A stretch of 25,218 nucleotides of DNA from positions 1 to 25,218 of the IMG/VR virus record IMGVR_UViG_3300032038_000603; one strand, given 5' to 3'. Every line of letters begins with the position of its first letter. Positions within the stretch are counted from its first letter, which is position 1. The translations under genes and the position numbers were made by a program. The notes under the pieces are model-generated. The model was not told the origin of the DNA. It saw only the letters and a list, made by a program, of their open reading frames with translations, and searched no databases. Source of the stretch: a virus. Below are positions 1-25,218 of the stretch, piece after piece.

Positions 1-214
1 AAGACATTAAGTTGTTGACGTATTATGCTGGATTTATCACCGATCAACCTAATATGTCATTACAAGATGTTCAATCCTTACTAATGGAATGTTCTGATAA
101 TCAAATCGATTTATTAAATACGTATATTGATAAAAATTTATCTCTAAAATCTCCTTTAGAAATCGAGGAGCTATACACCAGAATCGTAGGAGAAATGGGT
201 ATAGCTCCTTCTGA
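1..214. repeat. Terminal direct repeat, copy 1 (equals 25005..25218)
   Basis: Read directly: 1-214 aligns base for base with 25005-25218. The only difference is T119 versus C25123. This implies a 25,004-bp circular or circularly permuted unit. Confidence 0.95.
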
Positions 215-425
215 TTTTTATCAGATGACAATACAAGATATTGATAATGCTTATGAAGGTTTTAAAAGAAGATTAGAAATTGATGCTAATATTTATTTAA
301 TCGCTTTACATAATAGAAATAATAAAAATGCTGATATTCGTTTTGTTGAAGATAAGGGTTATACTATTGGAAATTTTGAGGATAGGAAAGAAACATTCCA
401 AAAATTAAACATCAAGGAGGATTAG
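3..425 (+). CDS. Tail assembly chaperone-like protein, 5'-truncated by the window start (full gene starts at ATG 24917 and wraps; about 170 aa)
   Basis: The frame is open from the window edge. It is identical to the ORF that starts at 24917 by ATGA overlap with the major tail protein stop. It sits directly after the major tail gene. The C-half motif GIAPSDFYQMTIQDIDNAYEGF resembles the 'lG.sP.eFW.mTp.El' motif of gpT/GTA-type chaperone extensions. Confidence 0.6.
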   Translation, partial: DIKLLTYYAGFITDQPNMSLQDVQSLLMECSDNQIDLLNTYIDKNLSLKSPLEIEELYTRIVGEMGIAPSDFYQMTIQDIDNAYEGFKRRLEIDANIYLIALHNRNNKNADIRFVEDKGYTIGNFEDRKETFQKLNIKED

Positions 426-429
426 TCTT

Positions 430-660
430 ATGGCAATTAATGAGGATGTTCTCCAACACATTCATGAAAAACGTGCGGAGAATCCATATACACAACAAGT
501 GGGGTTTAGGCATAATGGAGGTAATGAACACATTGCCGATATTAATTCTTCTGATGCGGAATTAGAAGCTATTATGAATGAAACCTGGTTTTCAGAAGAA
601 GATGATGTTGAAATGGTTTCTAACCAATTAGCGCTACAAACCCAAAGAGGAGGCTATTGA
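430..660 (+). CDS. Hypothetical acidic 76-aa protein occupying the tape-measure position
   Basis: GGAGG at 416-420 lies upstream of ATG 430. Its stop TGA 658-660 overlaps the ATG 660 of the giant ORF. I recognise no family motif. Confidence 0.6.
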   Translation: MAINEDVLQHIHEKRAENPYTQQVGFRHNGGNEHIADINSSDAELEAIMNETWFSEEDDVEMVSNQLALQTQRGGY

Positions 661-1040
661 TGTTAATAAACAATATTGAATTAAGTAGTCTCGGCATCAA
701 GTTATATGATAGAGTCATTACAAGTAATCAGGTTAACACTAAAGAAGCATGGCTTGATGGTGATATACAGCCAACTCCAATTAGACAGCAAGATAGTTTT
801 AAAGATATCAGGCTGTCTTTTTTAGTATTAGGAAATGATGAAGATGATGCCTTTTTAAGAATTAGTAAATTAACTAGATTATTAAAAAAGGCAACTTTAA
901 AGTTTGATGATTTAGATTATTACTTTGATGTTAGTATGACTGGTAAAGCTGAACCTCAAAGATTAAAGAATGGTAATTTTGTAGTTGATTATAGTTTTAC
1001 TTCTGATTATGCAAAAGGTGAAAGAGAAATCTATACAACT
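660..1040 (+). other. Dit (distal tail protein) N-terminal belt-domain-like segment of the giant ORF
   Basis: The pattern KDIRLSFLVLGNDEDDAFLRISKLTRLLKKATLKFDDLDYYFDVSMTG...NFVVDYSFTSDYAKG mirrors the siphoviral Dit N-domain layout. Compare SPP1 gp19.1: RELEVDAIVFGD..LRRRIEYLNFLL..ITFSDEPSRTYYG..VTLNFYCQDPLKYG. Confidence 0.5.
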
Positions 1041-4000
1041 GATGCAAACTATACAAGTAGTTTTAAATTAACTATTTTATATTATCAGAATTCAACAACT
1101 CTATTATCAACAGATAGTATTACTGTTCGCGCAGCAATGTTTGAAGATACTGGTAATACATTTGCTTCTATAGGTATTGACGCAAATAAATATAGACCGA
1201 ATTATTATCAAGAAGGTATTGCTACAAATCTTGGTGGCAGAGAAATTACTTATGAAAACTTACAGTCATTAGGAACTCTTATTATTAATTATGCTCCTAT
1301 AGCTTATAATTTAACTATTAACTATTTTATGGACAATGGAACTGGTATTTACCAGGATATGTTTGTAAGTAATATACAATTTACATATCCGCAATTACAA
1401 AATATTCAGTCTATTGGACAGTTAGTAGATGTAAAAAGTTATAAACCAGAAGGTTATTTAGGAAGAATAGCTTTTACAGGAGCATTAACAGTTGAAAACT
1501 TATTAGCTGTAAGTCCAATTTATGTTTTCTATGATCAATTAGAGAACGATTTATCTAAAAGCATCACTGTCTCTTATTTAAAAGAAGACGATGATGGAAC
1601 TTATTCTACTGTTGGAGCTTTAACCAAAGTGTTTAAGCAAAGTGATTTCACTGATGGAATGACTCTTGGAGAAATTCTTAATGTAAATGCTTATAGACCA
1701 ACAGCCACTTATTATAATGAAGGTTATATTGAAGATCATAGTCTTACTGAATTAATTACATATGAAGATTTGAAAGTTAGTTATGAGATTAAATATGCTA
1801 AATCAACTAATATTGTATTTGTTGAATATTATGTTGGTGTATATCCAGGTTGGTATAGAGTATCTACAACCACACTTCGAACAGTATATAAAGAATCTTA
1901 TGAAGAAAGCTTTAGTCTTTCAGATATTAATTTAGATTTAAACAAATATCACACTTCAGAATATCAAAGTGGAGTTTTATATAATGGCAGTATCTATGAT
2001 AGTTATGATGCTGTTATTTCTGGTGGAGTATTACAGGTTTATTATGAACCAATTAACTATACAATCCAAGTTGGTTATTGGGTTCCAGAAGAAGAGCCTA
2101 TTGTAGAAGATGTTGTTATTAATGCTTTAGATTTTCTTGGAGATCCAGTATTAAGCGATATTATTCCAATAGCAAGTCATAGACCAGAAGGTTTCCAATT
2201 TGATGCTTTTCTTTCTTATGATGGACCTATTACTCTCGCGGGTTTGACTCAAGCTTCTCCAATTAATATTTACTATGAAGAAATAGTAGCTGCCCGCACA
2301 AAAAATATAATTTTAAAATACAAGCAAGAATTAGCTTCTACTTTTGCAACAATAAATACATCTATTATTACTATCAATGAAGCAGATACTATAAATGGTA
2401 TTAGACTTAAAGATGTATTTAATATGAATCTTTATAAGCCTGATTACTATGAAAATGGTATTTTAGATGGATACAGTTCAACTGCCCTTCTTAATTTTGA
2501 TGAAATTGAATCAGCTTATACCGTAGTTTATATGGCTTCTACTTTCATCACTCCAGTTAGATATTACACAGATGATGTAGATGATTTAAATTGGATTGGA
2601 AGTAGTTCAATATCCTATAAAGTTATTGATTTTACTATTGATACAACTTTATATGATTTAGGATTTAATATAAATGCTTATAAACCTAGTTATTGTGATG
2701 ATGGAGAACTTCAATATCATGGACCTATTAATTTTGAATCTTTAAGAAACTTAACAAGCCTAAATGTAGTTTATGAAACAATTATGGAGCCAGGTGGGGA
2801 TTTAGATTATCCACATAGATTCCTTTTCCTAGAGCACAATGATTTAGGTGATTATGAATACTTACATCCTAATTGGACAATGAACCATGCTTATATTAAT
2901 ACTGGAGTTTCAGTTGAAGATATGAGCAAATTAACCGTAGTTATGGAATGCGAACGTGTTGATAATGATGTTCCTTTACACAATGTTAATGCGGGCTTCG
3001 GTTATTTATTTGGTTCTCAATCTGCATTAGGATCTTACTATATGAGATTTAACAACCAGACACAGTATGGTGAGAATCTTACTGGAGTAAATACTTATGA
3101 AGCTCAAGCGGGTCTTTATTCTGATGCTTTGGTTCAGGCTGAAAGCTCTGCAATTGGTTTCTCTGCAAACTCTGGTATTTATGCTATTGAAAGACCAGGA
3201 TATTCTACTGCGGTCTTCACTTATAGCAACACAATGGCAAGCGAGGCCGCCCAAATGCCATATCCATTATATTTGTTCGCAAATAATAATGCTGGTCAAT
3301 ATGAGGAAGGTCTTGCTGGTATTGGTATTTATAGTTGTCGTATTTATTATAATGGAGCTTTGATTAGGGATTATATTCCAGTTCAATTCTATGATAAGAT
3401 TGGCGATCAAGTTGCTCCTTCAAATTGTTTGTATGATAAAATTACAGGCACTTTCTTTGAAGATGCTACTGGACAGAACAGTTTTAATATTAGAGACGAT
3501 GAAAGATATACAGATACTAATTTAGATCATAAGATCGGTCATTGTTATGTGAATTATTATAAGGGTGAAACTTTTATGCAAAATGTTGCTTATTATTTTA
3601 GAGCAAGTGATTTTGTAGATCAGATATTTGATCCTTATGAAAAATTCCAAATTGATTTATATCAACCATCATATTATAAATCTGGTGAAATTGTTAATGT
3701 TGAAAATTTAGTTTGGGATTTCGATAACATGAACAATGCTGTTTATACAGTCGTTTATCCAGAACAAGCAAATACAATTACAGTTAGATATTATACTGAA
3801 AATAGTGTTGGTGTTAGAACTCTTATCGAAGAGGAGACAATTGGAATATCTGAACAAGATTTCTATCAAGCTCCTACTTTTGGAGATATAGTTCGTATCA
3901 ATAAATATAAGCCAGAAGGATATGAAACTGATTTTGTATATCCTGGCACAAAAGTCTCTCTTACTAGAGTAGTTGATCATTCTCCTTATGAGATTGTTTA

Positions 4001-7000
4001 TAAAATTGCAGATAGAGAGCTTGAAACATATACAACAATAATTCGCTATATTAAAAAAGTTTATGGAATTAGAACTTATGAAACTATAGCTTCCGAAGTT
4101 TTAACCCTTGATGAAACTCAATTTAGAGATGGCGAATATATTGATTTTTATATAGATAAAAATCTTCATAAACCCGCTAATTTTTATAAAGATGGTGAGC
4201 CATATCAGTGGTATGAAATGGATGAGAAACTTGATACACCAAGCAAACTCAAAGAAATTTATACTATTGTATATCAAGTAGATACAACATATTTGGATGT
4301 AAATTATTATAAAAACTCTGTAAGCAGTGAAAATCTTATTGCTTCTACAACCTGGGGAATTAATATAGATGTTTTTGAACCAGGAATTCCAATTTATGTT
4401 TTAGATACTATTCCTAATGAATATATAAACAAGTATAAACCTTCAAATTGTAATGGTGGTCAAATACAAAATAGTTCTACTGCTTATCAAACATTTGCTG
4501 ACTTGGCCGCGATTGAAGAAATAGCTATAGTTTATGAAGAAACGACTCAACCGCACGATCCAGAATCTTTATCTTATGAACAAAAGGTTCTTTATTGGGG
4601 TGAAGTTAATGAGGAAGATTATTTTGATGATATTAATGGAAATACTCATTTCTATGGAGGAAGAATCCCTTATATTGATCTTGGGTATAAACCAAAAGAT
4701 TTAAGTAGATTAAGAGTTGAGTTAAAGGGTTATGCAAGACCTTGGGGTATTGGATCTAATACAGCTCAATATATGTATCAAGATTTAGGTTATACTTATT
4801 TCTTTGGATATTATGGTCCATTGGGTGAGTCTTATCTTGGCACTTCTGGAGCAAGTAGAGATGGTGTTGCAGCTTCTACTTCTGCTAATGGAACTCCAAG
4901 AGGTTCTGCGGTAAGTCCTTCTTCTTCTGGATGTTTTGGTTTTAGATGCAGAATTCCACAAGCTGGAGGATATGTATATTCAGCAGCTGGCCCGCAATCA
5001 ATTGATGGACAAACTTATTATAGAGCTGGAGATGGTATTGGAGTAATTTCTGGAGATCCACACCTTAAATACACAGGAATTGAAGCCGTTTATAGAAAAG
5101 GTAAATATAGTGATTATGATGATAATTATAATGTAATTAAAGGATTTAGTAATTATGGATTCACTAGGACAGACGAAGAAGATCTTCGTGAGATTATAAC
5201 AGACTTTGATCGTGTTCCAAATTGGTGTATTAATCGTGCTACTGGAGGAACTGATAGAATAAGAACTGCTTGCGGTAATCCTTATACAATAATTCTTGAT
5301 GCTTATAATAAATATGGGGCTGAATGGAGAGAAAGTGATAGTAATACTCCTACCACCTATATTTTTGATGAATCAGAAGACAATCCATTATTTGAAAATA
5401 TTTGTCAGCCTAAAGGAACATTATCATTATTCCAAACTACAAATCCAGATACTGGAAATGTGAATATAATGGCATTTAATCCAACAGTAATGCCTTTCCT
5501 TGGTAGTTCTAGTAGTTTAAACCTTTCTAACAACGCACTTGGTAATCCTTATGACAGAGACTTTTCAACTTCAGTCTCATATACAACTTGGGTAATAACA
5601 GGAACAAAGCAATCTTCTGAAGTAGAACAAGAGAAGCCGGGAACTATAGTTATGGAACAGAAGACTGAATCTAGGAATATTAATTATGCGACTTTCCCAG
5701 TGCCAGCTTTTCCTCAAATGACAGGTTGTGCTATTTGGGGCATTAAGATTTATGATCAAGATAGATTAGTAAGAAATCTTATCCCAGTGGCTCAAGGAGA
5801 TCAAGTATATGATTATGTAATGCCAGCTAATGGATTATTTGATCTGGTCACAGAGATCTTCTTTGGCAACTCAAATAAAGGTGGAACCTATACTTATGAT
5901 AGCTATTTAGCTCCTCAAACTGGAGGACCAGTTCATTCAGTTAGAACAATTGAAGCAAATGAGGTTTTACCTCTTAATTGTATCCTAGATCCTACAATTT
6001 TTGGTAAGACAATAGCTAATTATTATGATTATGATAATACATTTATTACAAATCAATTTGTAAATGTTCCTACTTGGTATAATAAAGCTAATGAAAATTT
6101 AGAAGATATTCTTCAATTCAATGATTATAAGCCTGATGATTTCCATCTTGATGGATTATTAGATTTAGATGTTGATTTAAGTTTCCAGAATATGTCTCTT
6201 GCAGATATTTATCTTATGGGAGCATTGAATATCTACTATAAATTAAGAAACTTTACCAAGACAGTTGTTTATTATAGAGATAATGTAAGAATAGGTTCAA
6301 GAGATATTTTCTATTCATTAGAAGATATTGAAAATGCTACTTCTTTAGCAGATCTTAATATTGATGTAGATTTATTCTACAATGAAGATTTTGCTCATGG
6401 TAGATTAGTGTTCGATGAATCAATAATTGAAAATGATGATATTGAAGCATTCATTGATGCTCCATCACCAATTGTTGTATATGATAAATTAACTAAACAA
6501 GAAGCTCCAAACTTATTGTATGTAGAATATTATAGACAAGGAGCTTATGATGATACATTAATTACAGTCAATGAAAATAGTCCTAACTATTTAGATTGTA
6601 ATTTAAGTGCGGTTGTATTAAATCCTAACGGAGCTATTAAATATTACAACCACTATCATACAGCCTTATATGAGGATGAAGATTATGATTACTTCATTCC
6701 TTATCAAGTGTATGTTAGAAATAAGTTTGCTGGTATCCATAGAGGCCCAGCCCGCAAGTTCCCTACTTTAGCTATGATTGTTGAAAATGACAATTATACA
6801 ATTATTGAAGAGAGAAATGGATGGGGTCGTCTTGATGAATACCAAGCAGGATGGATTTTATTAAATCAAACTGATCCTATTACAGGTCCAGGACAGAATC
6901 CAGATTATGATGTAGCTGATCAAGAGACGGCTACTATTCCTTTTGGATCTACCATTACCATAACCAAAATGACAATAGACAGATTATGGTGTTATTGTCC

Positions 7001-9503
7001 TGCTCAAGATAGCTGGATTAAGAATGAAGATATTTCATTTAACCAAGCTGGTAAGCTTTATAATGGATTAGGAATTGAGGTAATTCATTTAGATGAGATT
7101 AATTTCTCTAGTCCTACTTTAGATTCTATTGGAATTAATCCACAACAATATAAGTTAAGATTCCATGAACAAGCACAAGTTCCTATGCTTACTTTATCTT
7201 ATGCAAGTCTTTCAGATTTACATGAAATAGAGTTTGTATATCCTGAAACAATTTACAGTTATACTTGTAAATATTATCAGTATCAAGCAATTCCAGTTAA
7301 TCTTTTAGGCACGGCCGCATTTACTTGTTCTATTTCAGATTGGAATCCAGATTGGGAGAAATTCATAGAAACTTCTTGGCGGCAAGCTGAATTAATAGAT
7401 TATGGATATCTTCAAACTAAAAATACTGTAGATCCTCATTATTTAGTTGTTTATTCTGAATCAGATGATTCTTCAGCATCTGTAATTACTTATCCAACAG
7501 ACGGTAAAACTGTTTTAAGAATTACTGGGCCAATGACTCAACAATTTTATCCAGTGCAAAGTTGTGATAATGATTCAATTGTTGGTTATGTTAAAGCTAG
7601 AGATTCAGATTATTATCAATTAATTTCTGAATATGGAGGAACTATTACTGCTGATGTTGAACCAATTCTTTATAGAGATACAGAATTAGTATTAACTTGG
7701 GATTATTTTGGATTTGATAAAAACCTTTATAAACCATTAGGTTTTGGAGATGGTATTTATCTTTGGAATCCAAGACCTTGGAATAAAGATAATATTCAAT
7801 TTACATTTAATGAATTAGTTAGATGTGGAACACAATATGTTGTATATCCACCATTTGATCCTAATACTTATAAATTATGGAATCAACCTAATTATTTAGG
7901 AGTATATTATACTGTTTATCATACAGAAGGTTCTAACGAAATTAGGTATATTAAGAATCGTGGTATTAGTATTAATATGGCAGGAACATATGACTATTTT
8001 GAACCAGGAGAATATAGCGAACATAAAATTTATGACATTTATACTTCTGGGGAAATGACAAGACCATTTGTAAAAACAAGTGATACTTTAGACACTTCTG
8101 AAGATACATCTTACACTACTAGAACTTGGAATAGTGCATTATATTGGTATGATAATCGAGATGAATCTAATTCTCATACAACTGGTTATGTTCTTCCTTA
8201 TGTAGGAACTTGGGATTCAAGAAGTGGAAATATTCAAACTTTACTTGATAACCCAGAAATTGGAGATAGTTATTTTTATACATTCTCTAACTTTAGAAGT
8301 AGTCCTACTGTTGTTCTTGGTCTTGGTAATGAATATCTTAATAAAATTTCAAGATATTATTTACTTAAGAATATGAGCAGCACAATGTATGATGCAGATT
8401 GGCTTCGTATATATGATAATACTAATATTAACAGATACGCACTTGGTAAAGGTAGAGCAGATAAATATCTTATGACTGCAGATCCATATACCAATAATGT
8501 TATTCAAGGTGATAATGATTATGAACATTTAAGAGGTATTATTTATGACAATATAGCTTATGAGAACTTTATGATGATTCACTATTGGGTCCCAGTTCCA
8601 AAAGGTGTGAGATACAATTGGAATAATCAAGAAGAAAGAATCCCAGATAATGGATTATTTGATTTATTAACTGGTGATTTTGCTAGAAGCTATAGATTAA
8701 CCGATGGTGCTATTAAGCCTTATAGCGATTATCCTAATACTTTACAGCCAACTAGAGATGGTAATGATTTAATCTTCTTAAGAAATCAAACTGTTAATGA
8801 GAATAATGCATACAACTATTTTGCTAATAAAGAATTTGAGTATGAAACTATTAATACTATTTATCAAACAAATACGGCTGTTCAAACTTATAATTGGCCA
8901 GATACTTATGCAAATAGAATGTATAATCTTGCTCAATATACAGTTGTTCCAGGGACTAAATATGTTGATCCGCAAGCTAATTTGATTACAGGTAGTTGGG
9001 TGTTTGCTGGAAATCAATGGATTCCAGAGAATGCTTTAACTCCTGCTTCTGGAGATGTAGTTAATAGATTTACTTATACTAATGAAAAACAAACATTATG
9101 TTTAAGACCTACTCAATATGATAGCACTGTTAAAGCTTATCCAAATCCTGGTTATTTAAATGAAGATGGAGTTGATTATGGTTCTAATCCAATAGTAGTA
9201 GATTCTTATTGCACTTGTTATTCAACTTCTCTCCAAAGGGTTCAAGCTTACTTTATAGGAGATGGTTGGGTTTCTGCATCTCAAAGTCAAAACAGAGTGG
9301 TTGAAGATGGAACTAATTATGTAGTTGCAGTGAATACAAATTATTACCAGTATCCAATAGAGGATAATAATTACTTAATTGATCAATATCATTATGGTGA
9401 TAGAATTACCTCTATTCACACATTATATGCGGATAGTGATTGGATTTATACTGGTATAGGATGGATTAAGAAAACAGCTAATAACTTATCAATAGTTGAA
9501 TAA
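660..9503 (+). CDS. Giant (2947 aa) tail-tip adhesin-like protein: Dit N-domain-like head fused to MucBP-like repeats, three lectin/jelly-roll-like modules and SH3b-like domains
   Basis: The ORF is 8844 nt with no interruption. GGAGG at 649-653 lies 6 nt before ATG 660 (the track starts it at TTG 657). It is translationally coupled to the upstream ORF (TGATG). Domain calls come from motif reading, detailed in the sub-features. Confidence 0.9.
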   Translation: MLINNIELSSLGIKLYDRVITSNQVNTKEAWLDGDIQPTPIRQQDSFKDIRLSFLVLGNDEDDAFLRISKLTRLLKKATLKFDDLDYYFDVSMTGKAEPQRLKNGNFVVDYSFTSDYAKGEREIYTTDANYTSSFKLTILYYQNSTTLLSTDSITVRAAMFEDTGNTFASIGIDANKYRPNYYQEGIATNLGGREITYENLQSLGTLIINYAPIAYNLTINYFMDNGTGIYQDMFVSNIQFTYPQLQNIQSIGQLVDVKSYKPEGYLGRIAFTGALTVENLLAVSPIYVFYDQLENDLSKSITVSYLKEDDDGTYSTVGALTKVFKQSDFTDGMTLGEILNVNAYRPTATYYNEGYIEDHSLTELITYEDLKVSYEIKYAKSTNIVFVEYYVGVYPGWYRVSTTTLRTVYKESYEESFSLSDINLDLNKYHTSEYQSGVLYNGSIYDSYDAVISGGVLQVYYEPINYTIQVGYWVPEEEPIVEDVVINALDFLGDPVLSDIIPIASHRPEGFQFDAFLSYDGPITLAGLTQASPINIYYEEIVAARTKNIILKYKQELASTFATINTSIITINEADTINGIRLKDVFNMNLYKPDYYENGILDGYSSTALLNFDEIESAYTVVYMASTFITPVRYYTDDVDDLNWIGSSSISYKVIDFTIDTTLYDLGFNINAYKPSYCDDGELQYHGPINFESLRNLTSLNVVYETIMEPGGDLDYPHRFLFLEHNDLGDYEYLHPNWTMNHAYINTGVSVEDMSKLTVVMECERVDNDVPLHNVNAGFGYLFGSQSALGSYYMRFNNQTQYGENLTGVNTYEAQAGLYSDALVQAESSAIGFSANSGIYAIERPGYSTAVFTYSNTMASEAAQMPYPLYLFANNNAGQYEEGLAGIGIYSCRIYYNGALIRDYIPVQFYDKIGDQVAPSNCLYDKITGTFFEDATGQNSFNIRDDERYTDTNLDHKIGHCYVNYYKGETFMQNVAYYFRASDFVDQIFDPYEKFQIDLYQPSYYKSGEIVNVENLVWDFDNMNNAVYTVVYPEQANTITVRYYTENSVGVRTLIEEETIGISEQDFYQAPTFGDIVRINKYKPEGYETDFVYPGTKVSLTRVVDHSPYEIVYKIADRELETYTTIIRYIKKVYGIRTYETIASEVLTLDETQFRDGEYIDFYIDKNLHKPANFYKDGEPYQWYEMDEKLDTPSKLKEIYTIVYQVDTTYLDVNYYKNSVSSENLIASTTWGINIDVFEPGIPIYVLDTIPNEYINKYKPSNCNGGQIQNSSTAYQTFADLAAIEEIAIVYEETTQPHDPESLSYEQKVLYWGEVNEEDYFDDINGNTHFYGGRIPYIDLGYKPKDLSRLRVELKGYARPWGIGSNTAQYMYQDLGYTYFFGYYGPLGESYLGTSGASRDGVAASTSANGTPRGSAVSPSSSGCFGFRCRIPQAGGYVYSAAGPQSIDGQTYYRAGDGIGVISGDPHLKYTGIEAVYRKGKYSDYDDNYNVIKGFSNYGFTRTDEEDLREIITDFDRVPNWCINRATGGTDRIRTACGNPYTIILDAYNKYGAEWRESDSNTPTTYIFDESEDNPLFENICQPKGTLSLFQTTNPDTGNVNIMAFNPTVMPFLGSSSSLNLSNNALGNPYDRDFSTSVSYTTWVITGTKQSSEVEQEKPGTIVMEQKTESRNINYATFPVPAFPQMTGCAIWGIKIYDQDRLVRNLIPVAQGDQVYDYVMPANGLFDLVTEIFFGNSNKGGTYTYDSYLAPQTGGPVHSVRTIEANEVLPLNCILDPTIFGKTIANYYDYDNTFITNQFVNVPTWYNKANENLEDILQFNDYKPDDFHLDGLLDLDVDLSFQNMSLADIYLMGALNIYYKLRNFTKTVVYYRDNVRIGSRDIFYSLEDIENATSLADLNIDVDLFYNEDFAHGRLVFDESIIENDDIEAFIDAPSPIVVYDKLTKQEAPNLLYVEYYRQGAYDDTLITVNENSPNYLDCNLSAVVLNPNGAIKYYNHYHTALYEDEDYDYFIPYQVYVRNKFAGIHRGPARKFPTLAMIVENDNYTIIEERNGWGRLDEYQAGWILLNQTDPITGPGQNPDYDVADQETATIPFGSTITITKMTIDRLWCYCPAQDSWIKNEDISFNQAGKLYNGLGIEVIHLDEINFSSPTLDSIGINPQQYKLRFHEQAQVPMLTLSYASLSDLHEIEFVYPETIYSYTCKYYQYQAIPVNLLGTAAFTCSISDWNPDWEKFIETSWRQAELIDYGYLQTKNTVDPHYLVVYSESDDSSASVITYPTDGKTVLRITGPMTQQFYPVQSCDNDSIVGYVKARDSDYYQLISEYGGTITADVEPILYRDTELVLTWDYFGFDKNLYKPLGFGDGIYLWNPRPWNKDNIQFTFNELVRCGTQYVVYPPFDPNTYKLWNQPNYLGVYYTVYHTEGSNEIRYIKNRGISINMAGTYDYFEPGEYSEHKIYDIYTSGEMTRPFVKTSDTLDTSEDTSYTTRTWNSALYWYDNRDESNSHTTGYVLPYVGTWDSRSGNIQTLLDNPEIGDSYFYTFSNFRSSPTVVLGLGNEYLNKISRYYLLKNMSSTMYDADWLRIYDNTNINRYALGKGRADKYLMTADPYTNNVIQGDNDYEHLRGIIYDNIAYENFMMIHYWVPVPKGVRYNWNNQEERIPDNGLFDLLTGDFARSYRLTDGAIKPYSDYPNTLQPTRDGNDLIFLRNQTVNENNAYNYFANKEFEYETINTIYQTNTAVQTYNWPDTYANRMYNLAQYTVVPGTKYVDPQANLITGSWVFAGNQWIPENALTPASGDVVNRFTYTNEKQTLCLRPTQYDSTVKAYPNPGYLNEDGVDYGSNPIVVDSYCTCYSTSLQRVQAYFIGDGWVSASQSQNRVVEDGTNYVVAVNTNYYQYPIEDNNYLIDQYHYGDRITSIHTLYADSDWIYTGIGWIKKTANNLSIVE
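1060..2790 (+). repeat. Array A: seven tandem ~77-85-codon beta-rich repeats (MucBP-like), each carrying a Y(K/R/H)P..(Y/F) motif
   Basis: The motif Tyr/His codons fall at 1191, 1440, 1692, 1947, 2178, 2433 and 2679. The motifs are KYRPNYY, SYKPEGY, AYRPTATYY, KYHTSEY, SHRPEGF, LYKPDYY and AYKPSYC. Each repeat is flanked by V.Y / I.YY strand-like motifs. The copies are diverged at the nucleotide level. Confidence 0.7.
2800..3500 (+). other. Module J1: lectin/jelly-roll-like domain ending in ...LYLFANNNAG..IGIYSCRIYYNGALIRDYIPV...CLYDKITGTFFEDATGQNSF
   Basis: Its C-terminal signature (LFa.n....iy..kIy..g.l(I/V)R(D/N)(Y/L)IPV....G(L)(Y/F)D..t..FF.n.g) is shared with J2 and J3. I recall the signature from uncharacterised phage tail-associated proteins but cannot name the family. 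Confidence 0.4.
3540..4545 (+). repeat. Array B: four more MucBP-like repeats (LYQPSYY, KYKPEGY, LHKPANFY, KYKPSNC)
   Basis: It has the same Y(K/Q)P motif and V.YY strand pattern as array A, read from the translation. Confidence 0.65.
4590..5920 (+). other. Module J2: second lectin/jelly-roll-like domain with a large Gly/Ser-rich insertion
   Basis: It starts YWGEVNEEDYFDDINGNTHFYGGRIPYIDLGYKP and ends CAIWGIKIYDQDRLVRNLIPVAQGDQVYDYVMPANGLFDLVTEIFFGNSNKGGTY. The end is parallel to the J1 C-terminal signature. Confidence 0.4.
6010..6700 (+). repeat. Array C: about three degenerate copies of the same repeat (DYKPDDF plus weaker copies)
   Basis: The strand motifs IANYYDYD, KTVVYYRDN and LLYVEYYRQG recur at repeat spacing. 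Only the first copy retains a clear YKP motif. Confidence 0.4.
6708..7040 (+). other. Two SH3b-like domains inside the giant ORF
   Basis: VYVRNKFAGIHRGPARKFPTLAMIVENDNYTIIEERNGWGRLDEYQAGWILLN is a typical bacterial SH3 pattern (G.W..v....GW(I/V)). A weaker second copy follows: TITITKMTIDRLWCYCPAQDSWIKNEDI. Confidence 0.5.
7930..8710 (+). other. Module J3: third, more diverged copy of the J-type module
   Basis: It ends ...IIYDNIAYENFMMIHYWVPVPKGVRYNWNNQEERIPDNGLFDLLTGDFARSY. It shares the PV....NGLFDL.T..F signature with J2. The start boundary is uncertain. Confidence 0.3.
8925..9490 (+). other. C-terminal triplet of SH3-like / cell-wall-binding-like units
   Basis: Three units each end in an aromatic-Gly-Trp motif: GSWVFAGNQWIPENAL, YFIGDGWVSASQS and WIYTGIGWIKKTANNL. 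Confidence 0.35.
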
Positions 9504-9514
9504 GGGAGGCAAAT

Positions 9515-9865
9515 ATGGAGAATTATTATCCAATTGAATTCGATAATAATGGTAGCAGTTTCACTATCACAAATAATGGAACTGCTCCAGCTCCTTGCCT
9601 GATAACTTTTATACCTCAAGTAGATTTCATCACTCTTTCCATTACTGGATTGAGTGATGAACCTATAGAGGTAAGTGGAATTCGAGCTAATGATGTCTTG
9701 GTCATTGATGGAGAGAATAGACAAGTCCTTCTCAATGATCAAGATTATTTTAGCCATTATAATGGTTGGGAATTCCCAAAGTTGCAGCCAGGAGTGAATG
9801 AAATTAGAATCCCTAGTGGATCATTGGCTAATATTCAAATAGAATATAATGCGAGGTATATCTAA
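9515..9865 (+). CDS. Dit C-terminal-domain-like protein (116 aa)
   Basis: GGGAGG lies upstream of ATG 9515. The sequence FTITNNGTAPAPCLITF...ITGLSDEPIEVSG.RANDVLVIDGENRQVLLNDQD...FPKLQPGVNEIRIP...IQIEYNARYI matches the siphoviral Dit/Sipho_tail C-half pattern (N.G....P.i.i......gd.l.iD......v.lng......f..L.pG.N.i......i.y...y). Confidence 0.55.
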   Translation: MENYYPIEFDNNGSSFTITNNGTAPAPCLITFIPQVDFITLSITGLSDEPIEVSGIRANDVLVIDGENRQVLLNDQDYFSHYNGWEFPKLQPGVNEIRIPSGSLANIQIEYNARYI

Positions 9866-10896
9866 TGTTCAAAATATATGATACTAATAAGCATTTTCTT
9901 ATGCTTTTAGATTCCTGCCAAGATATTCATACTATTGAACAATTAGCCACAGGGACAAGAAACCTAGAGTTTTATGCCCCAGTTAATGACATAAATTTAG
10001 CCAATTTAGTAGAGGAAAACTACCTCGAGACCGCAGATTATAGCTACATAATTAAAGAAGTGATAATGAATGATAATTCCTTCTTTAAGGTATTTTGTAT
10101 AGCTAATTATGAAGAATTGGCTGGAATCAATTTTGAAGTATTCGATTTATATAGATTAAACCTACAACAAGGTTATGAATATTGTATAAGCCAAGCTCCA
10201 GAATGGTCTATTGATTATAGAAGTGGGAATAGGACAATGATTACTTATCAAGAACCTAATAAGTCAGGTTTTGAGATGATCAAGACCATTGCCGCAGATA
10301 ACAATCAAGAGCTTTGGTTTGATACAAAAAATAAGAAGGTGATTATTTACGATCAAGGTCAAATGGGGAAAGAGATTGGAACTTATTATTCAAACGAATT
10401 GAAGCTCCAACAATTATCCAAACAATCATCTTCTTATGAATATTGCACTGTCCTCTATCCTTATGGAAAAGACGGACTTAATATATCTTCAGTTAATGGA
10501 GGAAAGAAATATCTTACTAATAACATATACACAAACAAATACATCGAGAAGGTATGGGTCGATGAGAAGTATGAGTATGCTGAAGATTTAAAGAAGGCTG
10601 CTGAAATGTATCTTGAAGAACTTGCACAGCCTAAATGTAGTTATAAGTTAAAGCTTTCTTCTATTGGCGATGAAGTTCAATTAGGAGATACCATTTTCCT
10701 AGTTGATAAACTCAAGAGGATTAAACAAAAGCAGAGAGTTGTTAAGATAGTAAGATATCCAAAGCAACCTGAAAAATCTGTAATTGAAATATCTAACTTG
10801 AGATTAGATTTTACTACAACATATTTAAAAAACCAGGAAAAGATAAAACAAGATATAGATTACATAAAGAAGCAAATTGATTTGTTGAGACAATAA
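9865..10896 (+). CDS. Tail-associated (Tal) N-terminal gp27-like baseplate hub protein / phage minor structural protein N-terminal region (343 aa, short form)
   Basis: It has an ATG/TAA overlap with the upstream ORF and sits immediately after the Dit-like gene. The sequence MFKIYDTNKHFLMLLDS...TGTRNLEFYAP...YIIKEV... fits the prophage-tail N-terminal family pattern. Confidence 0.6.
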   Translation: MFKIYDTNKHFLMLLDSCQDIHTIEQLATGTRNLEFYAPVNDINLANLVEENYLETADYSYIIKEVIMNDNSFFKVFCIANYEELAGINFEVFDLYRLNLQQGYEYCISQAPEWSIDYRSGNRTMITYQEPNKSGFEMIKTIAADNNQELWFDTKNKKVIIYDQGQMGKEIGTYYSNELKLQQLSKQSSSYEYCTVLYPYGKDGLNISSVNGGKKYLTNNIYTNKYIEKVWVDEKYEYAEDLKKAAEMYLEELAQPKCSYKLKLSSIGDEVQLGDTIFLVDKLKRIKQKQRVVKIVRYPKQPEKSVIEISNLRLDFTTTYLKNQEKIKQDIDYIKKQIDLLRQ

Positions 10897-10979
10897 ATCT
10901 ATTGAAAATGCTTAAAATTTAAGGGCTTTCGTCTTGAGTCAGAGGTTTAATTTTTGCGCTGGTCTCCAACCCTTTTGTA

Positions 10980-10988
10980 TGCTATAAT
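10980..10988 (+). promoter_or_regulatory. Extended -10 promoter candidate (TGcTATAAT) reading toward attP and the integrase
   Basis: TGCTATAAT is read at 10980-10988. I see no good -35 element. Confidence 0.3.
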
Positions 10989-11071
10989 GCCTAGAGTCAA
11001 GAGGTCATAGTCCTAAATCAGTCAAGCTGTCTTGTTGATTTTAAAGATATTAAAGATAGATTGGTGGGTAG

Positions 11072-11121
11072 TTTGACTGGCAGTCAGGAGGTCACGAGTT
11101 CGAGCCTCGTACGCTCCACCA
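11072..11121 (+). other. 3' portion of a tRNA-Ala(GGC)-like gene (anticodon arm to CCA): putative attP core, not a complete tRNA
   Basis: The parts are: anticodon stem TTTGA/TCAGG (two G-U pairs), loop CTGGCAG (U33, GGC, A37), variable AGGTC, T-arm ACGAG-TTCGAGC-CTCGT, acceptor 3' strand ACGCTCC with U70, discriminator A, and CCA. No D-arm and no matching 5' acceptor strand lie upstream. A tmRNA 3' end (also ...CTCCACCA) is an alternative reading. Confidence 0.6.
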
Positions 11122-11202
11122 CCTAGTATTTTCAATACTTTATTGAGGTTAAAGACCTCTTGACTAGAAGCTTATTTATAAGGAGTCAGGAGGTCTTTAA
11201 TT

Positions 11203-12099
11203 ATGATTACAATGAAACCAGTATCAAAATCCATTGAAGAAACTTTTGAAGATTTTATTAATTCTAAAAGAGCAAATGGAATAAGGAATAAAACTCTTCA
11301 GACGTATTCTCAGCAATTCCATACAATTAGCAAGGAATTAACTGTAGAAAAGCAAATTGAAGAGCTTTCCAAAAAAGATTTAGAGAATGTAATTTTAGCC
11401 TTGAGAAATAGAGGATTATCCCCCAATTCTATTCGAAGTTATACTGCAACTTTACAATCTTTTTTGTCTTGGTGTAATGATGAAGGTCTAACAGATCTTA
11501 AAATCAAAAAATATAAAGGCCAAGAGTCAATCAAAACAACTTACACAAACGAAGAACTTGTTAAACTTTTAAAGAGACCCGATCGGAAATCCTGTACATT
11601 TTGTGAATATAGAAATTGGGTCATCATCAACTTATTGCTTAATTCTGGTTGTAGAGCTGCTACTATTCGTAATATAAGAATTCAAGATATCAATTTGGAT
11701 GAAGGAATTATTAGTTACAGACATACAAAGAATGGTTCTTCTCAAATTGTGCCTTTGTGCCAGGAGATGAAGAAAATATTGAAAGATTATTTAAAAGTAA
11801 GAGGAGGTTCTCAAACTGATTTTCTCTTTCCAAAAGAGAATGAAGAACAAATGACAGAGAACGGTTTATCTGAAGCCATTCGAAGATATAACAGAAAAAG
11901 AGGCGTTGAAAAAACTTCAATTCATTTGTTTAGACATTCATTTGCGGAAAGGTATCTTAGGGCAGGCGGAAACGCATTTGATTTACAAAGAATTTTGGGT
12001 CACTCGACTCTAGATATGACAAAGCACTATTGCCGCATTTACGATACTGAATTAATGAAAAATTATGATTCTTTATCTCCTTTACAGAGATTGGTTTAA
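11203..12099 (+). CDS. int: Tyrosine recombinase / phage integrase
   Basis: GGAGG at 11189-11193 precedes the start. An N-terminal SAM-like domain is present (TLQTYSQQF...IRSYTATLQSFLSW). The catalytic pattern is R (CRAATIRNI), H-x-x-R (HLFRHSF) and H...Y (LGHSTLDMTKHY). Confidence 0.9.
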   Translation: MITMKPVSKSIEETFEDFINSKRANGIRNKTLQTYSQQFHTISKELTVEKQIEELSKKDLENVILALRNRGLSPNSIRSYTATLQSFLSWCNDEGLTDLKIKKYKGQESIKTTYTNEELVKLLKRPDRKSCTFCEYRNWVIINLLLNSGCRAATIRNIRIQDINLDEGIISYRHTKNGSSQIVPLCQEMKKILKDYLKVRGGSQTDFLFPKENEEQMTENGLSEAIRRYNRKRGVEKTSIHLFRHSFAERYLRAGGNAFDLQRILGHSTLDMTKHYCRIYDTELMKNYDSLSPLQRLV

Positions 12100-12102
12100 A
12101 AA

Positions 12103-12137
12103 AGACCCAGCTTTGATTAGCTGGGTCTTTTTTTTTT
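12103..12137. terminator. Bidirectional rho-independent terminator between the integrase and the minus-strand gene
   Basis: Stem AGACCCAGC (12103-12111) pairs with GCTGGGTCT (12120-12128). An A-run lies upstream and a T-run at 12128-12137. Confidence 0.8.
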
Positions 12138-12324
12138 ATTGCCTAGTGTGCAGGTATTTATCTGTATCAGACATTGCTATTTCGAATGACTTCTGGATGA
12201 GATCGAGAGGTTTAACTTTCTCACCTCCCATCTTGGTGATGAGTTCATTTTGCTTATCAATAATTTTGAAATAGTTCTTTGGGACTGTGATAATGTTGGT
12301 ATCAAGATCGAGTGTAATTTTCAT
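12136..12324 (-). CDS. Hypothetical 62-aa protein, the only minus-strand gene (candidate regulator or excision factor)
   Basis: On the minus strand, AAAGGAGG lies 7-8 nt before the ATG. The gene has its own sigma70-like promoter and a palindromic operator. I recognise no family motif. Confidence 0.65.
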   Translation of the reverse strand: MKITLDLDTNIITVPKNYFKIIDKQNELITKMGGEKVKPLDLIQKSFEIAMSDTDKYLHTRQ

Positions 12325-12345
12325 TTGGTTAACCTCCTTTGTGAA

Positions 12346-12363
12346 TTAATATAATTATATTAA
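12346..12363. promoter_or_regulatory. Perfect 18-bp palindrome TTAATATAATTATATTAA overlapping the -10 of the minus-strand promoter (operator candidate)
   Basis: Read directly: TTAATATAA is the reverse complement of TTATATTAA. Confidence 0.6.
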
Positions 12364-12385
12364 CTCTTTTTTGTGTGTAGTGCAA
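12357..12385 (-). promoter_or_regulatory. Sigma70-like promoter for the 62-aa gene (TTGCAC-17-TAATAT on the minus strand)
   Basis: The -35 is the reverse complement of 12380-12385 and the -10 is the reverse complement of 12357-12362. The spacer is 17 nt. Confidence 0.6.
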
Positions 12386-12435
12386 TAGTTGCGGTTTAGG
12401 CCCGATCGGTTTGTTTGGATAAAGCGAACGGTTGT

Positions 12436-12464
12436 TTGATTTTCAAAAAAATTTTTTGTATAAT
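12436..12464 (+). promoter_or_regulatory. Near-consensus sigma70 promoter TTGATT-17-TATAAT
   Basis: TTGATT is at 12436-12441 and TATAAT at 12459-12464, with a 17-nt spacer. The first 21 nt are identical to 17476-17496. Confidence 0.7.
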
Positions 12465-12470
12465 AATAAT

Positions 12471-12695
12471 GAGAAAGCAAATAAAAACTCCTTTCATCTC
12501 ATAGAATATAAAAATAATTTCCTTTCTCAAAGGACAAATTCCTTTAAAAAACTTAACCTGATTTTTATTATTATATGAGAGCAAATGTGCTATTTTTTAA
12601 GAGCCAAATTTGTCTAAACATCTTTAAAAAGACATTGTGGTTATCTTCCTTTTAACTCCGGGGTTGAACTCTTTATGGGTTCAACTCTTTTTTTT
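12471..12695 (+). ncRNA. Candidate ~220-nt non-coding transcript (promoter to terminator; no ORF with an RBS; four CU-rich UCCUUU motifs)
   Basis: It is bounded by the 12436 promoter and the 12660-12695 terminator. Only unsupported mini-ORFs lie inside. CCTTT(C) motifs occur at about 12489, 12521, 12541 and 12643. Both ends are inferred. Confidence 0.4.
12660..12695 (+). terminator. Rho-independent terminator
   Basis: Stem GGGGTTGAAC pairs with GTTCAACTCT (7 Watson-Crick pairs plus G-U pairs) around a 9-nt loop. A run of T follows to 12695. Confidence 0.6.
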
Positions 12696-12815
12696 ATCTA
12701 AAAATTTTTCTAATTTTTTGGACAAAACTAATTTGGCGATCTTTTTCAATTTTCAAAATCTAATGAGGGGGAAGATTTTCTAAAAAATTTTTTTTTGAAA
12801 AGGAGAAAAAGACAA

Positions 12816-13316
12816 ATGTTAAAAGATATTAAAGGTTATGAAGGTTTATATGCTGTTACTGAAGAAGGACAGGTGTGGAGTTATAGAAAACAAAAGTTTT
12901 TAAAACCTTGGGATGATTCTCATGGTTATTTAAAAGTAGGATTAGTTGTAAATTATCATAAAGATCAAAGACGAGTACATAGATTGGTTTTAGAAACTTT
13001 TAATCCAGTAGAAGGAATGGAAAATCTTGAAGTTAATCATCTCGATGAAGATAAAACTAATAATAAATTAACCAATCTTTCTTGGAGCACTAGATTAGAA
13101 AATGTTAGACATGGCACTGGAATTCAAAGATCAGCACTTACAAGAAGTAAACCAGTAGCGCAATTAACTAAACAGGGAGAAATAATTGCAACTTACCCTT
13201 CTATTAGTGAAGCTGCTAGACAGACTGGGGCAAAAAAAGCAAGAATTTCAATGTGTTGTAATGGAAAAGCAATATCAACACACGGATATAAATGGAGGTT
13301 TATAGATGGAAAATAA
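12816..13316 (+). CDS. NUMOD4/HNH_3 homing endonuclease with a C-terminal helix-turn-helix (HTH, NUMOD1/IENR-like) motif
   Basis: AGGAG at 12801-12805 precedes ATG 12816 (the track starts at TTG 12795). The motifs are IKGYEGLYAVTEEGQVWS (NUMOD4), VHRLVLETF...VNHLDEDKTNNKLTNLSWSTRLEN (HNH) and YPSISEAARQTG...GYKWRF. Confidence 0.85.
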   Translation: MLKDIKGYEGLYAVTEEGQVWSYRKQKFLKPWDDSHGYLKVGLVVNYHKDQRRVHRLVLETFNPVEGMENLEVNHLDEDKTNNKLTNLSWSTRLENVRHGTGIQRSALTRSKPVAQLTKQGEIIATYPSISEAARQTGAKKARISMCCNGKAISTHGYKWRFIDGK

Positions 13317-13488
13317 ATATTTAAGAAAAACTCTTGGAATGAAATGCACACAAGAATTTTATGACATAGTTTGTGAATATGTCCAAGAGAGAGGGATGAC
13401 TGTCTCTAATTTAATTCGCAAGGCTCTTAAAGAAACTTATAATCTTGAAGAAAAAGCTGAAATTAAAAAAGGAAAGAAATCAAATTAA
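13306..13488 (+). CDS. Small ribbon-helix-helix (CopG/Arc-like) protein
   Basis: GGAGG lies upstream, and the start overlaps the HNH gene end. The beta-strand then helix pattern ends in MTVSNLIRKALKETY. Confidence 0.45.
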   Translation: MENKYLRKTLGMKCTQEFYDIVCEYVQERGMTVSNLIRKALKETYNLEEKAEIKKGKKSN

Positions 13489-13526
13489 TCAGAATAGAGC
13501 GGGCTAGGTTCTAAGCACTATTTGTC

Positions 13527-13555
13527 AGACACTGTAAGACTGTGTCTTTTTTTTT
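13527..13555 (+). terminator. Rho-independent terminator
   Basis: Stem AGACAC (13527-13532) pairs with GTGTCT (13542-13547), followed by a run of T. Confidence 0.55.
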
Positions 13556-13734
13556 CAGAAAAAATAATTTTTGATAAGTTGGACAAAGTTAATTAAAGTA
13601 AATGTCCTAATTTTTATATATAAAGAGCAGTTGGGGGAAGGGTCTATATCGGTCTTTTTAAACACTTCGCTTCGCTCGTGTTTAAAAATCCCTCTTTAAA
13701 AACTTTTCCTTAGCTCGCAACCAAAAGGAGAAGA

Positions 13735-14184
13735 ATGTATAATAAAAAAGTTTATAAAGCACAATTAGATGCTATAGAGGCTTCTGCTCCTGGAAAGTAT
13801 GATTGTGCAGGAATATATTCTATCTCTATTGGAGGGAAATTAGTTTATATAGGTAAGTCTAATGATGTAAAAACAAGAATTGCTTTTCATATAATGAACT
13901 TAACAGATCAATCAATAAGAGATTCTCACTCACACAAGTATGATGTAATAAGAGAGGCTGTTGGAAGAAAAATAATTGTTGAGTTTGACTTATTATACAA
14001 AGCTAAAGAGATAGATAAAGAAAAGATTCAAGAAGAAATTGGTATTAAAGAAGGAGAATTAATACGAAAATATATGCCTCCTTTAAATTATCAAATACCA
14101 AAAGAAAAAAATTATAAAAGATATACAGTACAAAAAACTGCAAAAACAATTACTTTAGATGAGATTATGGACGATTCTAAATAA
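13735..14184 (+). CDS. GIY-YIG nuclease (free-standing homing-endonuclease-like, catalytic domain only)
   Basis: AAGGAG lies upstream. The motifs are GIYSISIGGKLVYIGKSNDVKTRIAFH (GIY...YIG...R) and EGELIRKYMPPLNYQ (E...N). Confidence 0.8.
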   Translation: MYNKKVYKAQLDAIEASAPGKYDCAGIYSISIGGKLVYIGKSNDVKTRIAFHIMNLTDQSIRDSHSHKYDVIREAVGRKIIVEFDLLYKAKEIDKEKIQEEIGIKEGELIRKYMPPLNYQIPKEKNYKRYTVQKTAKTITLDEIMDDSK

Positions 14185-14244
14185 TTTCGCAGGATTTTTT
14201 TTTATTACTAAATGGAGACCAGTATTAACAAAGGAGGGTTGATT

Positions 14245-24920: not shown

Positions 24921-25218
24921 TTTTATATAAAAACAATATTCTATATAGTTTTAGGTTTGGACTTAAAGGGTTAATAATCTTAAACGATTTATTATATTTA
25001 AATGAAGACATTAAGTTGTTGACGTATTATGCTGGATTTATCACCGATCAACCTAATATGTCATTACAAGATGTTCAATCCTTACTAATGGAATGTTCTG
25101 ATAATCAAATCGATTTATTAAACACGTATATTGATAAAAATTTATCTCTAAAATCTCCTTTAGAAATCGAGGAGCTATACACCAGAATCGTAGGAGAAAT
25201 GGGTATAGCTCCTTCTGA
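24917..25218 (+). CDS. Tail assembly chaperone-like protein, 5' part (runs off the window; continues as 3..425)
   Basis: ATG 24917 overlaps the major tail protein stop (ATGA). I translated it by hand as MILYKNNILYSFRFGLKGLIILNDLLYLNEDIKLLTYY..., with no stops to the window end. Confidence 0.6.
   Translation, partial: MILYKNNILYSFRFGLKGLIILNDLLYLNEDIKLLTYYAGFITDQPNMSLQDVQSLLMECSDNQIDLLNTYIDKNLSLKSPLEIEELYTRIVGEMGIAPS
25005..25218. repeat. Terminal direct repeat, copy 2 (equals 1..214)
   Basis: See copy 1. The single difference is C25123 versus T119. Confidence 0.95.

Follow-up and report, generated by a model that had tools for sequence, protein, structure and literature searches.

Why would a phage genome of about 25 kb devote a third of its length to a single gene, and what does the encoded protein do? 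The question is posed by the IMG/VR virus record IMGVR_UViG_3300032038_000603, positions 1 to 25,218 of which constitute the window, i.e. the whole stretch of 25,218 nucleotides (nt) analyzed here. One open reading frame (ORF) of this window encodes a protein of 2947 amino acids (aa), hereafter the giant, which an earlier note, written from the nucleotide sequence by itself, had described as a modular cell-surface adhesin grafted onto the N-terminal domain of a distal tail protein (Dit). The answer that we regard as likely is that the giant is a virion receptor-binding arm built directly on the Dit ring. The evidence includes two features that the earlier note had missed, an apparent division of Dit between two genes and the absence of a recognizable tape-measure gene.

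A giant gene conserved in a family of small phages

The giant ORF (660-9503, + strand) begins with ATG and runs without an in-frame stop (translation table 11) to a TAA terminator, encoding a polypeptide of 336.9 kDa with a pI of 4.4. The ATG at 660, for which TTG at 657 is an alternative, is preceded by AGAGGAGG and shares nucleotides with the stop codon of the preceding ORF (TGATG). The gene takes up 8844 nt of a 25,004-nt unit (35.4%), bearing out the earlier description of a single uninterrupted ORF filling about 35% of the genome, and the second- and third-longest ORFs of the window encode 459 and 413 aa. Window positions 1-214 are exactly identical to 25005-25218, and from this 214-nt terminal overlap the genome is circular or terminally redundant. 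A false circle created by a genomic repeat was considered and rejected: independently assembled relatives break elsewhere, with the same gene order and a total of ~25 kb.

A word-indexed search of 5.8 billion proteins finds homologues of the giant in at least 231 clusters, the best 120 of which are full-length (2830-3034 aa, 48-84% identity); for the 120 clusters listed, the longest contigs are almost all 22-27 kb. IMG/VR holds 28 loci related to that of the giant. The assemblies are independent (MEGAHIT k141 contigs and scaffolds from several studies), with differing break points and the same circular gene order. Conservation follows the domains of the protein, with aa 1-2250 conserved, and aa 2250-2947 variable or replaced. 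By contrast with this metagenomic family, neither the window nor the giant has a megablast or tblastn match among 50,697 GenBank phage records, and a scan of GTDB species genomes gives neither a relative nor a prophage copy.

These family data refute the view that the giant ORF arose as a chimera of the assembly, or that it is a pseudogene open by chance; to both we attach a negligible probability. Full-length homologues come from independent assemblies in the 231 clusters and relatives occur in the 28 IMG/VR loci, which excludes a chimera, and conservation is structured by domains. The chance of 2947 stop-free codons at the A+T-rich base composition of the window is ~10^-111, and the in-frame stops present in relatives are TAG only, read as Gln.

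A Dit divided between two polypeptides

The assignment of the N-terminal ~125 aa to a Dit N-domain, first made in the earlier note, is one on which profile, hhalign and AlphaFold/Foldseek comparisons agree. Residues 3-119 of the giant match positions 41-163 of the Dit profile phrog_33 (E 4.5e-3; best family member 8e-4), and hhalign aligns aa 1-104 with residues 1-106 of the 233-aa Dit of Clostridium phage phiSM101 (probability 78.6%, E 1.7e-5), with which the giant has the N-terminal MLINNI in common. Pfam Sipho_tail gives no match to the giant. An AlphaFold2 model of aa 1-296 has a mean predicted local distance difference test score (pLDDT) of 81, which is low only at a hairpin (aa 24-44), disordered in the modeled monomer, and a linker (aa 121-132). 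In a Foldseek search of the PDB, the N-domain model matches phage tail-tip or baseplate chains of TP901-1, p2, 80alpha, monocin, NF5 and Douge with probability 1.0, including 4v96_AS/AV (TP901-1, E 3e-4), 9j1k_K (monocin tip), 2wzp_P (p2, 298 aa), 6v8i_AC (80alpha), 9m8o_G and 8zdo_m, and the chain lengths suggest that these are the Dit subunits. Tube and terminator proteins, which have the same fold, rank lower in the list.

The remainder of Dit, the C-terminal domain that is of galectin type in solved Dits, is found in the next ORF, which lies 11 nt beyond the TAA of the giant and has its own GGGAGG ribosome-binding site. This ORF covers positions 1-97 of 97 of SPP1_Dit (PF22768, Pfam 'Siphovirus-type tail component, C-terminal domain'; E 2.5e-11) without insertion, and matches phrog_33 positions 174-278 (E 2e-21). 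Its top GenBank phage match is the C-terminal half of the phiSM101 Dit (37% identity, E 3e-13). The giant N-terminus and the next ORF therefore carry complementary halves of phrog_33, in register. The stand-alone Dit C-domain ORF occurs in 149 clusters (114-122 aa among full-length members), and no homologue of the giant was found to contain a fused Dit C-domain. In different relatives the two genes are -1, 11 or 22 nt apart, and this variation points to independent initiation rather than a frameshift site. Joining of the giant to the Dit C-domain by frameshifting or readthrough was accordingly rejected, the TAA being followed by a strong ribosome-binding site and ATG at a varying spacing. These comparisons establish the Dit N-domain fold of aa 1-125, its register with the Dit C-domain and the gene order; judging from the sequences, Dit is split over two polypeptides in every relative examined. 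We know of no described split Dit.

An adhesin-like arm with a conserved trunk and a variable tip

Beyond its N-domain, the giant is a modular, adhesin-like arm, with a conserved trunk and a variable tip (Table 1). Fifteen repeat units of ~83 aa were counted with a profile hidden Markov model (HMM) iterated on the family. A BLASTP self-comparison of the giant gives no internal repeats, because the units are too diverged and require profile HMMs. The HMM, trained on 11 hand-picked units, in its first round finds seven tandem units at aa 129-708, four at aa 954-1295 and the untrained region aa 1776-1944; iteration on the family adds R14 and a split R15, whose halves correspond to HMM positions 1-42 (aa 2193-2267) and 25-87 (aa 2307-2399). 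R1-R7 have the motif N.Y[KR]P..Y..G. In the AlphaFold2 model, R1-R2 have a pLDDT of ~90, and the leading PDB matches of the aa 1-296 model are 7yl4_A/B (YwfG; E 3e-5 and 1e-4, ~250 aligned columns), with a further match of R1-R2 to the R. gnavus Ig-binding protein 7kpj. The crystal structure of YwfG from Lactococcus lactis shows an L-type lectin domain, a MucBP domain and Mub repeat arranged as a head-to-tail stalk, with a length of 180 A for four domains (~4-5 nm per domain); the Mub/MucBP parts form the stalk, and sugar is bound by the lectin domain only (PMC9815576). The models thus support the prediction that the repeats of the giant fold like Mub/MucBP adhesin modules. Of the earlier description of MucBP-like repeats, the blocks of seven and then four units hold and are joined by a YwfG-like predicted fold, whereas Pfam MucBP (PF06458) matches neither the whole giant nor its pieces at E<=1.

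The repeats are interrupted by three modules, J1, J2 and J3, which are interrelated and of predicted jelly-roll fold, in agreement with the three J modules marked in the earlier note. J1 is the most conserved part of the giant (family conservation 0.72-0.85), and its AlphaFold2 model is all-beta (pLDDT 78.7; predicted template modeling score, pTM, 0.79). Its Foldseek matches in the PDB include the neurexin LNS/LG domain 2h0b (0.99), Vibrio cholerae neuraminidase 1kit (0.99), botulinum-neurotoxin receptor-binding domains and SHBG, with probabilities up to 0.99 and E-values of just 3e-3 to 4e-2. In BFVD, J1 matches uncharacterized gut-phage proteins (E 1.5e-8) and entries named LamG-like or Concanavalin A-like. 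The middle of J2 is variable and partly of low complexity, conservation dropping at aa 1350-1700, and J3 sits in the hypervariable C-terminal quarter (identity to the family 0.15-0.34). By hhalign, the three modules share a ~50-aa C-terminal motif; the N-terminal strands of J1 and J2, compared at a non-significant probability of 3%, may also be shared. Together, the comparisons support related, concanavalin A (ConA)/LamG-like jelly rolls, the fold of J1 being a modeled one and sugar binding putative. A search with the J1 profile among 1.84 billion proteins gives 1,393 representatives (at 50% identity), 195 of them at E<1e-10, and the proteins listed often contain 2-8 J-like stretches in 400-2,000 aa. 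Nine sampled J-module proteins have no informative Pfam or PHROG annotation; one sampled protein pairs the module with an ALK/LTK glycine-rich domain.

SH3b domains are supported in the giant through its relatives, Pfam SH3_3 (PF08239) giving no match to the query itself. At aa ~2026-2067, the equivalent segment of an orthologue (P0012-type) scores 30.4 bits with SH3_3, as compared with a gathering cut-off of 27, and three further orthologues have E-values of 0.001-0.012, making an SH3b domain probable here. A second unit in this middle region is possible at ~aa 2085-2130, extending into R14 (to ~nt 7049), with a non-significant hhalign E of 0.046. Another predicted SH3b domain is inserted in R15: an SH3 HMM derived from homologues, from which the query and its nearest relatives were left out, matches aa 2253-2315 (independent E-value, iE, 5e-7), and in the homologue P0074, the equivalent of aa 2256-2319 scores 50 bits with SH3_3. 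For the C-terminal 227 aa, comparison with the family SH3 profile gives a hhalign E of 0.16, and one orthologue has an SH3_3 E of 0.039. Thus, the mid-protein SH3b domains of the earlier note are retained by way of the orthologues, and its three SH3-like units at the C-terminus are not confirmed.

Table 1. Features of the giant and its neighborhood, in window coordinates
Feature	Position	Strand	Basis or remark
Dit N-terminal (ring) domain, giant aa 1-125	660..1034	+	phrog_33, hhalign, AlphaFold2 and Foldseek
R1-R7, seven tandem units, aa 129-708	1044..2783	+	repeat HMM, iE 1e-14 to 1e-26
J1, aa 708-954, predicted ConA/LamG-like jelly roll	2781..3521	+	AlphaFold2 and Foldseek
R8-R11, four units, aa 954-1295	3519..4544	+	repeat HMM, iE 4e-14 to 2e-22
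J2, aa 1295-1776, predicted enlarged J-type jelly roll	4542..5987	+	hhalign J1-J2 97.3%, E 2e-11
R12-R13, aa 1776-1944	5985..6491	+	outside HMM training set; iE 7e-17 and 4e-19 after iteration
Region X, aa 1945-2114, probable SH3b at ~aa 2026-2067	6492..7001	+	SH3_3 scores of orthologues
R14, aa 2115-2197	7002..7250	+	iterated repeat HMM, iE 3e-13
R15, aa 2193-2399, split by inserted SH3b	7236..7856	+	iterated repeat HMM, two halves
SH3b inserted in R15, aa 2253-2315	7416-7604	+	query-free SH3 HMM
J3, aa 2400-2720, divergent J-type module	7857..8819	+	hhalign J2-J3 92.8%, E 4e-7
C-terminal 227 aa, beta-rich, variable	8820..9503	+	no significant SH3 link
Dit C-terminal domain, separate 116-aa ORF	9515..9865	+	Pfam SPP1_Dit, phrog_33, phiSM101 Dit
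Tal, 343 aa, N-terminal structural core	9865..10896	+	Pfam Prophage_tail, E 7e-33; PHROG tail matches
Putative attP core, 48-nt exact copy of the 3' part of tRNA-Ala(GGC)	11075..11122	+	80 nt upstream of integrase
Integrase gene	11203-12099		phrog_1, E 1e-50
Tail tube protein, 129 aa	24531..24920	+	Pfam Phage_tail_2, E 8e-20
Chaperone-like ORF, ~170 aa (listed as 12..425)	true start ATG 24917	+	translation across the repeat junction
Acidic ORF, 76 aa	430..660	+	directly upstream of the giant

Gene order and the missing tape measure

The order of tube protein, chaperone-like ORF, giant, Dit C-domain and Tal is kept in the relatives L001, L004, L013, L042 and L044. The chaperone-like ORF as listed lacks its own 5' end, the true ORF spanning the junction of the terminal overlap; it can be aligned to a 177-aa homologue in L013, has weak family matches only, and occupies the usual place of tail assembly chaperone G. 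The position of the small acidic ORF is likewise kept in relatives (56-86 aa). Tal (tail-associated lysin) is without lysin or fiber extension, a form for which there is precedent in a 341-aa Tal described as extension-less (PMC7291167). Because Tal is a bare core with no receptor-binding-like gene after it, receptor binding at the tail tip has no candidate other than the giant.

None of the window ORFs scanned has a PHROG or Pfam match to a tape measure, and no such gene is found in the relatives L001, L004, L005, L013, L042 and L044. The giant itself occupies the tape-measure slot: phiSM101 and GBSV1 have their tape-measure genes there, directly upstream of Dit. Such a gene is missing here, where the giant directly precedes the Dit C-domain and Tal, with no tape-measure gene before it. 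Tape measures are long, largely helical proteins, whereas the giant is all-beta where modeled and has a Dit-like N-terminus. MT835666, a 24-kb human-gut record matched by the Dit C-domain, was considered and rejected as a relative: it is an ordinary siphophage in which Dit is intact (231 aa) and an ORF of 1121 aa fills the tape-measure position.

The head block of the window comprises small and large terminase, portal, MuF-like protein, scaffold, major capsid protein, head-tail adaptor and two small ORFs, and the tube gene is preceded by a HK97-gp10-like protein, a 65-aa ORF and tail-completion gp17. The gp10-like protein (23324-23929) is extended at its C-terminus by ~70 aa, which include a hydrophobic segment resembling a transmembrane helix and a tail rich in Gly and Ser; the extension is unusual for the family and might have to do with the lack of a tape measure. 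The head-tail connector genes are separated from the gp10-like gene by a fiber-like ORF of 257 aa (21399-22172) and a 380-aa ORF with repeated C..L motifs (22169-23311), which has a weak match to BspA-type leucine-rich repeats (LRR; LRR_5 E 0.025). In L001, a 752-aa collagen-repeat protein is encoded at this position. Beyond Tal, the putative attP site and the integrase are followed by HNH/NUMOD4 (12795-13316), a 60-aa ORF and GIY-YIG (13735-14184), all within 10896-14212, and an AT-rich, ORF-poor stretch with short repeats is seen at 12330-12795. The integrase of L001 is on the opposite strand, upstream of the gp10-like gene, and none is called in L013, L042 or L044. Lysis, replication and repressor genes are not recognized in the 25-kb unit.

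Putative integration site and host, and genetic code

A 32-mer from the attP core occurs in just 37 stretches among 185,579 species genomes, nearly all of them from ruminant-gut metagenome-assembled genomes (MAGs) of Mogibacterium sp., Anaerovoracaceae bacterium and 'uncultured Clostridiales RUG'. This suggests a temperate phage of Gram-positive Anaerovoracaceae, integrating into tRNA-Ala. The host assignment is offered as a hypothesis, because the G+C content of one profiled host locus (L050) is ~45%, as against 31% for the phage. In the Mogibacterium MAG contig L049, the tRNA-Ala 32-mer is present at 364-395 and 6018-6049, 5.6 kb apart on the same strand, and the pair may represent the att sites on either side of a small integrated element.

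Among the relatives, which include L001, L004, L042, L044 and L014-L041, most have 2-33 in-frame TAG codons in the giant gene, never TAA or TGA. In-frame TAG is also found in their Dit C-domain and chaperone-like ORFs, and in the database proteins it is read as Gln. The window genome is TAG-free, with no in-frame TAG and its 25 genes ending in TAA (18) or TGA (7). Neither the window nor the complete relative L001 contains tRNA genes, and no suppressor tRNA was found in them.

Proposed function and alternative explanations

In the receptor-binding arm that we propose, six copies of aa 1-125 would presumably assemble into a ring located between the tail tube and the trimeric Tal. Each copy would bear an arm of ~2,800 aa and about 25 domains, whose extended length is estimated at ~100 nm from the dimensions of YwfG. 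The arm would comprise a stalk of 15 Mub/MucBP-like modules, three ConA/LamG-like jelly rolls, about three SH3b domains, and the hypervariable C-terminal ~700 aa. The jelly rolls and SH3b domains may attach to peptidoglycan or to glycans of the cell wall in a Gram-positive host, for which Anaerovoracaceae/Mogibacterium of the ruminant gut are the probable candidates; binding would be multivalent, and the variable tip would set the host range. The Dit C-domain, translated from the next ORF, would presumably dock non-covalently on the periphery of the ring.

Several observations weigh against this proposal. The sequence evidence for the Dit N-domain is weak taken alone (E 4.5e-3 with phrog_33; 78.6% with hhalign), hhalign gives no alignment between this domain and the GBSV1 Dit, and the Foldseek TM-scores are low, each model comprising more than one domain. 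The query itself has no Pfam or PDB sequence match: searches with the giant, whole and in ten pieces, give nothing meaningful in Pfam and PHROGs, and PDB profile searches with alignments of the N-domain and of the full-length family give nothing. The fiber-like and LRR-like ORFs at 21399-23311 are a second adhesin candidate. To our knowledge, a Dit ring without a covalent C-domain and without a tape measure is unprecedented, so that assembly could differ from the textbook scheme. Finally, the ligand, the stoichiometry and the incorporation of the giant into virions are predictions.

An alternative function, which we consider unlikely, is that the arm mainly tethers the virion to its environment, such as mucus, plant fiber, and rumen or gut surfaces, along the lines of the 'adherence to mucus' idea, host recognition being left to the neck fiber and LRR-like proteins or the tip of Tal. 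The presence of the separate fiber-like ORF and the weakly BspA-LRR-like ORF is consistent with this, as is the resemblance of the repeats to Mub/MucBP modules of mucus- or Ig-binding adhesins (YwfG, R. gnavus IbpA). In YwfG, however, the Mub/MucBP parts are a stalk and the lectin domain alone bound sugar, and in the present case Tal has no extension. SH3b domains, moreover, are typically peptidoglycan binders, and a conserved trunk that ends in a hypervariable C-terminal quarter is typical of host-range determinants.

A deeper objection would be that the N-domain represents a generic tail-tube fold, the giant being a side fiber located elsewhere or a non-virion protein, and the hub being formed from other proteins. 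The modest sequence scores of the N-domain leave room for this reading, as does the occurrence of its fold in tube and terminator proteins, but the best phage matches are tail-tip and baseplate entries, not tube proteins, and the profile match is in register with the Dit C-domain ORF. The shared MLINNI start of the giant and the phiSM101 Dit also argues for a true Dit, as does the lack of any other Dit N-domain candidate in the fully accounted 25-kb genome, and we therefore regard this explanation as very improbable.

The receptor-binding arm can also be placed in a wider scenario, which is possible and on balance doubtful: a lineage of siphovirus-derived particles would have lost the tape measure, and split the Dit gene and expanded it in place, giving a stub tail with six ~100-nm arms. 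Such a virion-encoding, satellite-like element might depend on a helper or on the host, since no recognizable replication, lysis or suppressor-tRNA genes are present, although most members need TAG as Gln.

Relation to known systems

Evolved Dits are known from siphophages of lactic-acid bacteria (Lactobacillus phages J-1/PL-1, the lactococcal 936 group and S. thermophilus phages). Each is a single polypeptide whose galectin domain has one or two carbohydrate-binding modules inserted in its loops (PMC7291167). Like these, the giant combines Dit with extra modules of carbohydrate-binding type, as a predicted tail-tip adhesion device in six copies per virion. By contrast, it has a ~25-domain, ~2,800-aa arm placed after the N-domain, an insertion-free Dit C-domain on a separate polypeptide, and Mub/MucBP-like, LamG-like and SH3b modules in place of the BppA-type module of evolved Dits. 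Because its modules are not inserted in the galectin domain, the giant falls outside the definition of this class. Thus, of the parallel drawn in the earlier note, what survives is a Dit functionalized for adhesion; by analogy, the giant may be viewed as an extreme form of the evolved-Dit idea.

With classical Dits (SPP1 gp19.1, TP901-1, p2 ORF15), of which the phiSM101 Dit is the closest by sequence, the present system shares the N-domain fold, a position directly upstream of Tal and a PF22768 C-domain, the difference being that two domains of one chain are here on two polypeptides. In lambda gpM and T5 pb9, Dits that have the ring domain only or a C-domain of non-galectin type, the ring domain works without a covalent galectin domain (PMC7291167). 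The phages concerned, however, have tape measures and separate fibers, and no giant arm on the ring domain.

Surface adhesins of Gram-positive bacteria (L. lactis YwfG, L. reuteri Mub, S. aureus SraP) likewise combine a stalk of tandem small beta-modules with jelly-roll, lectin-type modules. Unlike them, the giant has no signal peptide or LPXTG anchor, a phage ring domain serving as the anchor, and its jelly rolls are distributed over the length of the arm instead of being confined to the tip. A literature search found no prior description of MucBP-type repeats combined with Dit or a phage tail.

The phage family may belong to the 'Topaz' clade, whose passages in Borges et al. (bioRxiv 10.1101/2021.08.26.457843) describe small (22 +/- 3 kb), temperate, TAG-recoded phages of Firmicutes. 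According to these passages, the likeness extends to circular genomes (~22-25 kb), TAG as Gln in structural genes, an integrase, tRNA-gene integration in Firmicutes and a GC skew that runs in one direction. Oscillospiraceae are the host put forward for Topaz, as compared with Anaerovoracaceae here, and the Topaz passages make no mention of a giant Dit gene.

Implications

The giant family, as interpreted here, would widen the range of phage adhesion devices, placing about 25 domains on a split Dit at the cost of a third of the genome. It would also represent the reuse of a bacterial-adhesin architecture on a phage tail hub, in which a Mub/MucBP-like stalk is combined with lectin-type jelly rolls and SH3b domains. 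The J-type jelly roll appears to be a widespread, unnamed module, with about 1,400 representative proteins. For tail assembly, the family raises the questions of how tube initiation and length measurement may proceed without a tape measure, and how the tail periphery may be assembled with a separate Dit C-domain. Being abundant in gut metagenomes and having a predicted host clade, the family is approachable by experiment.

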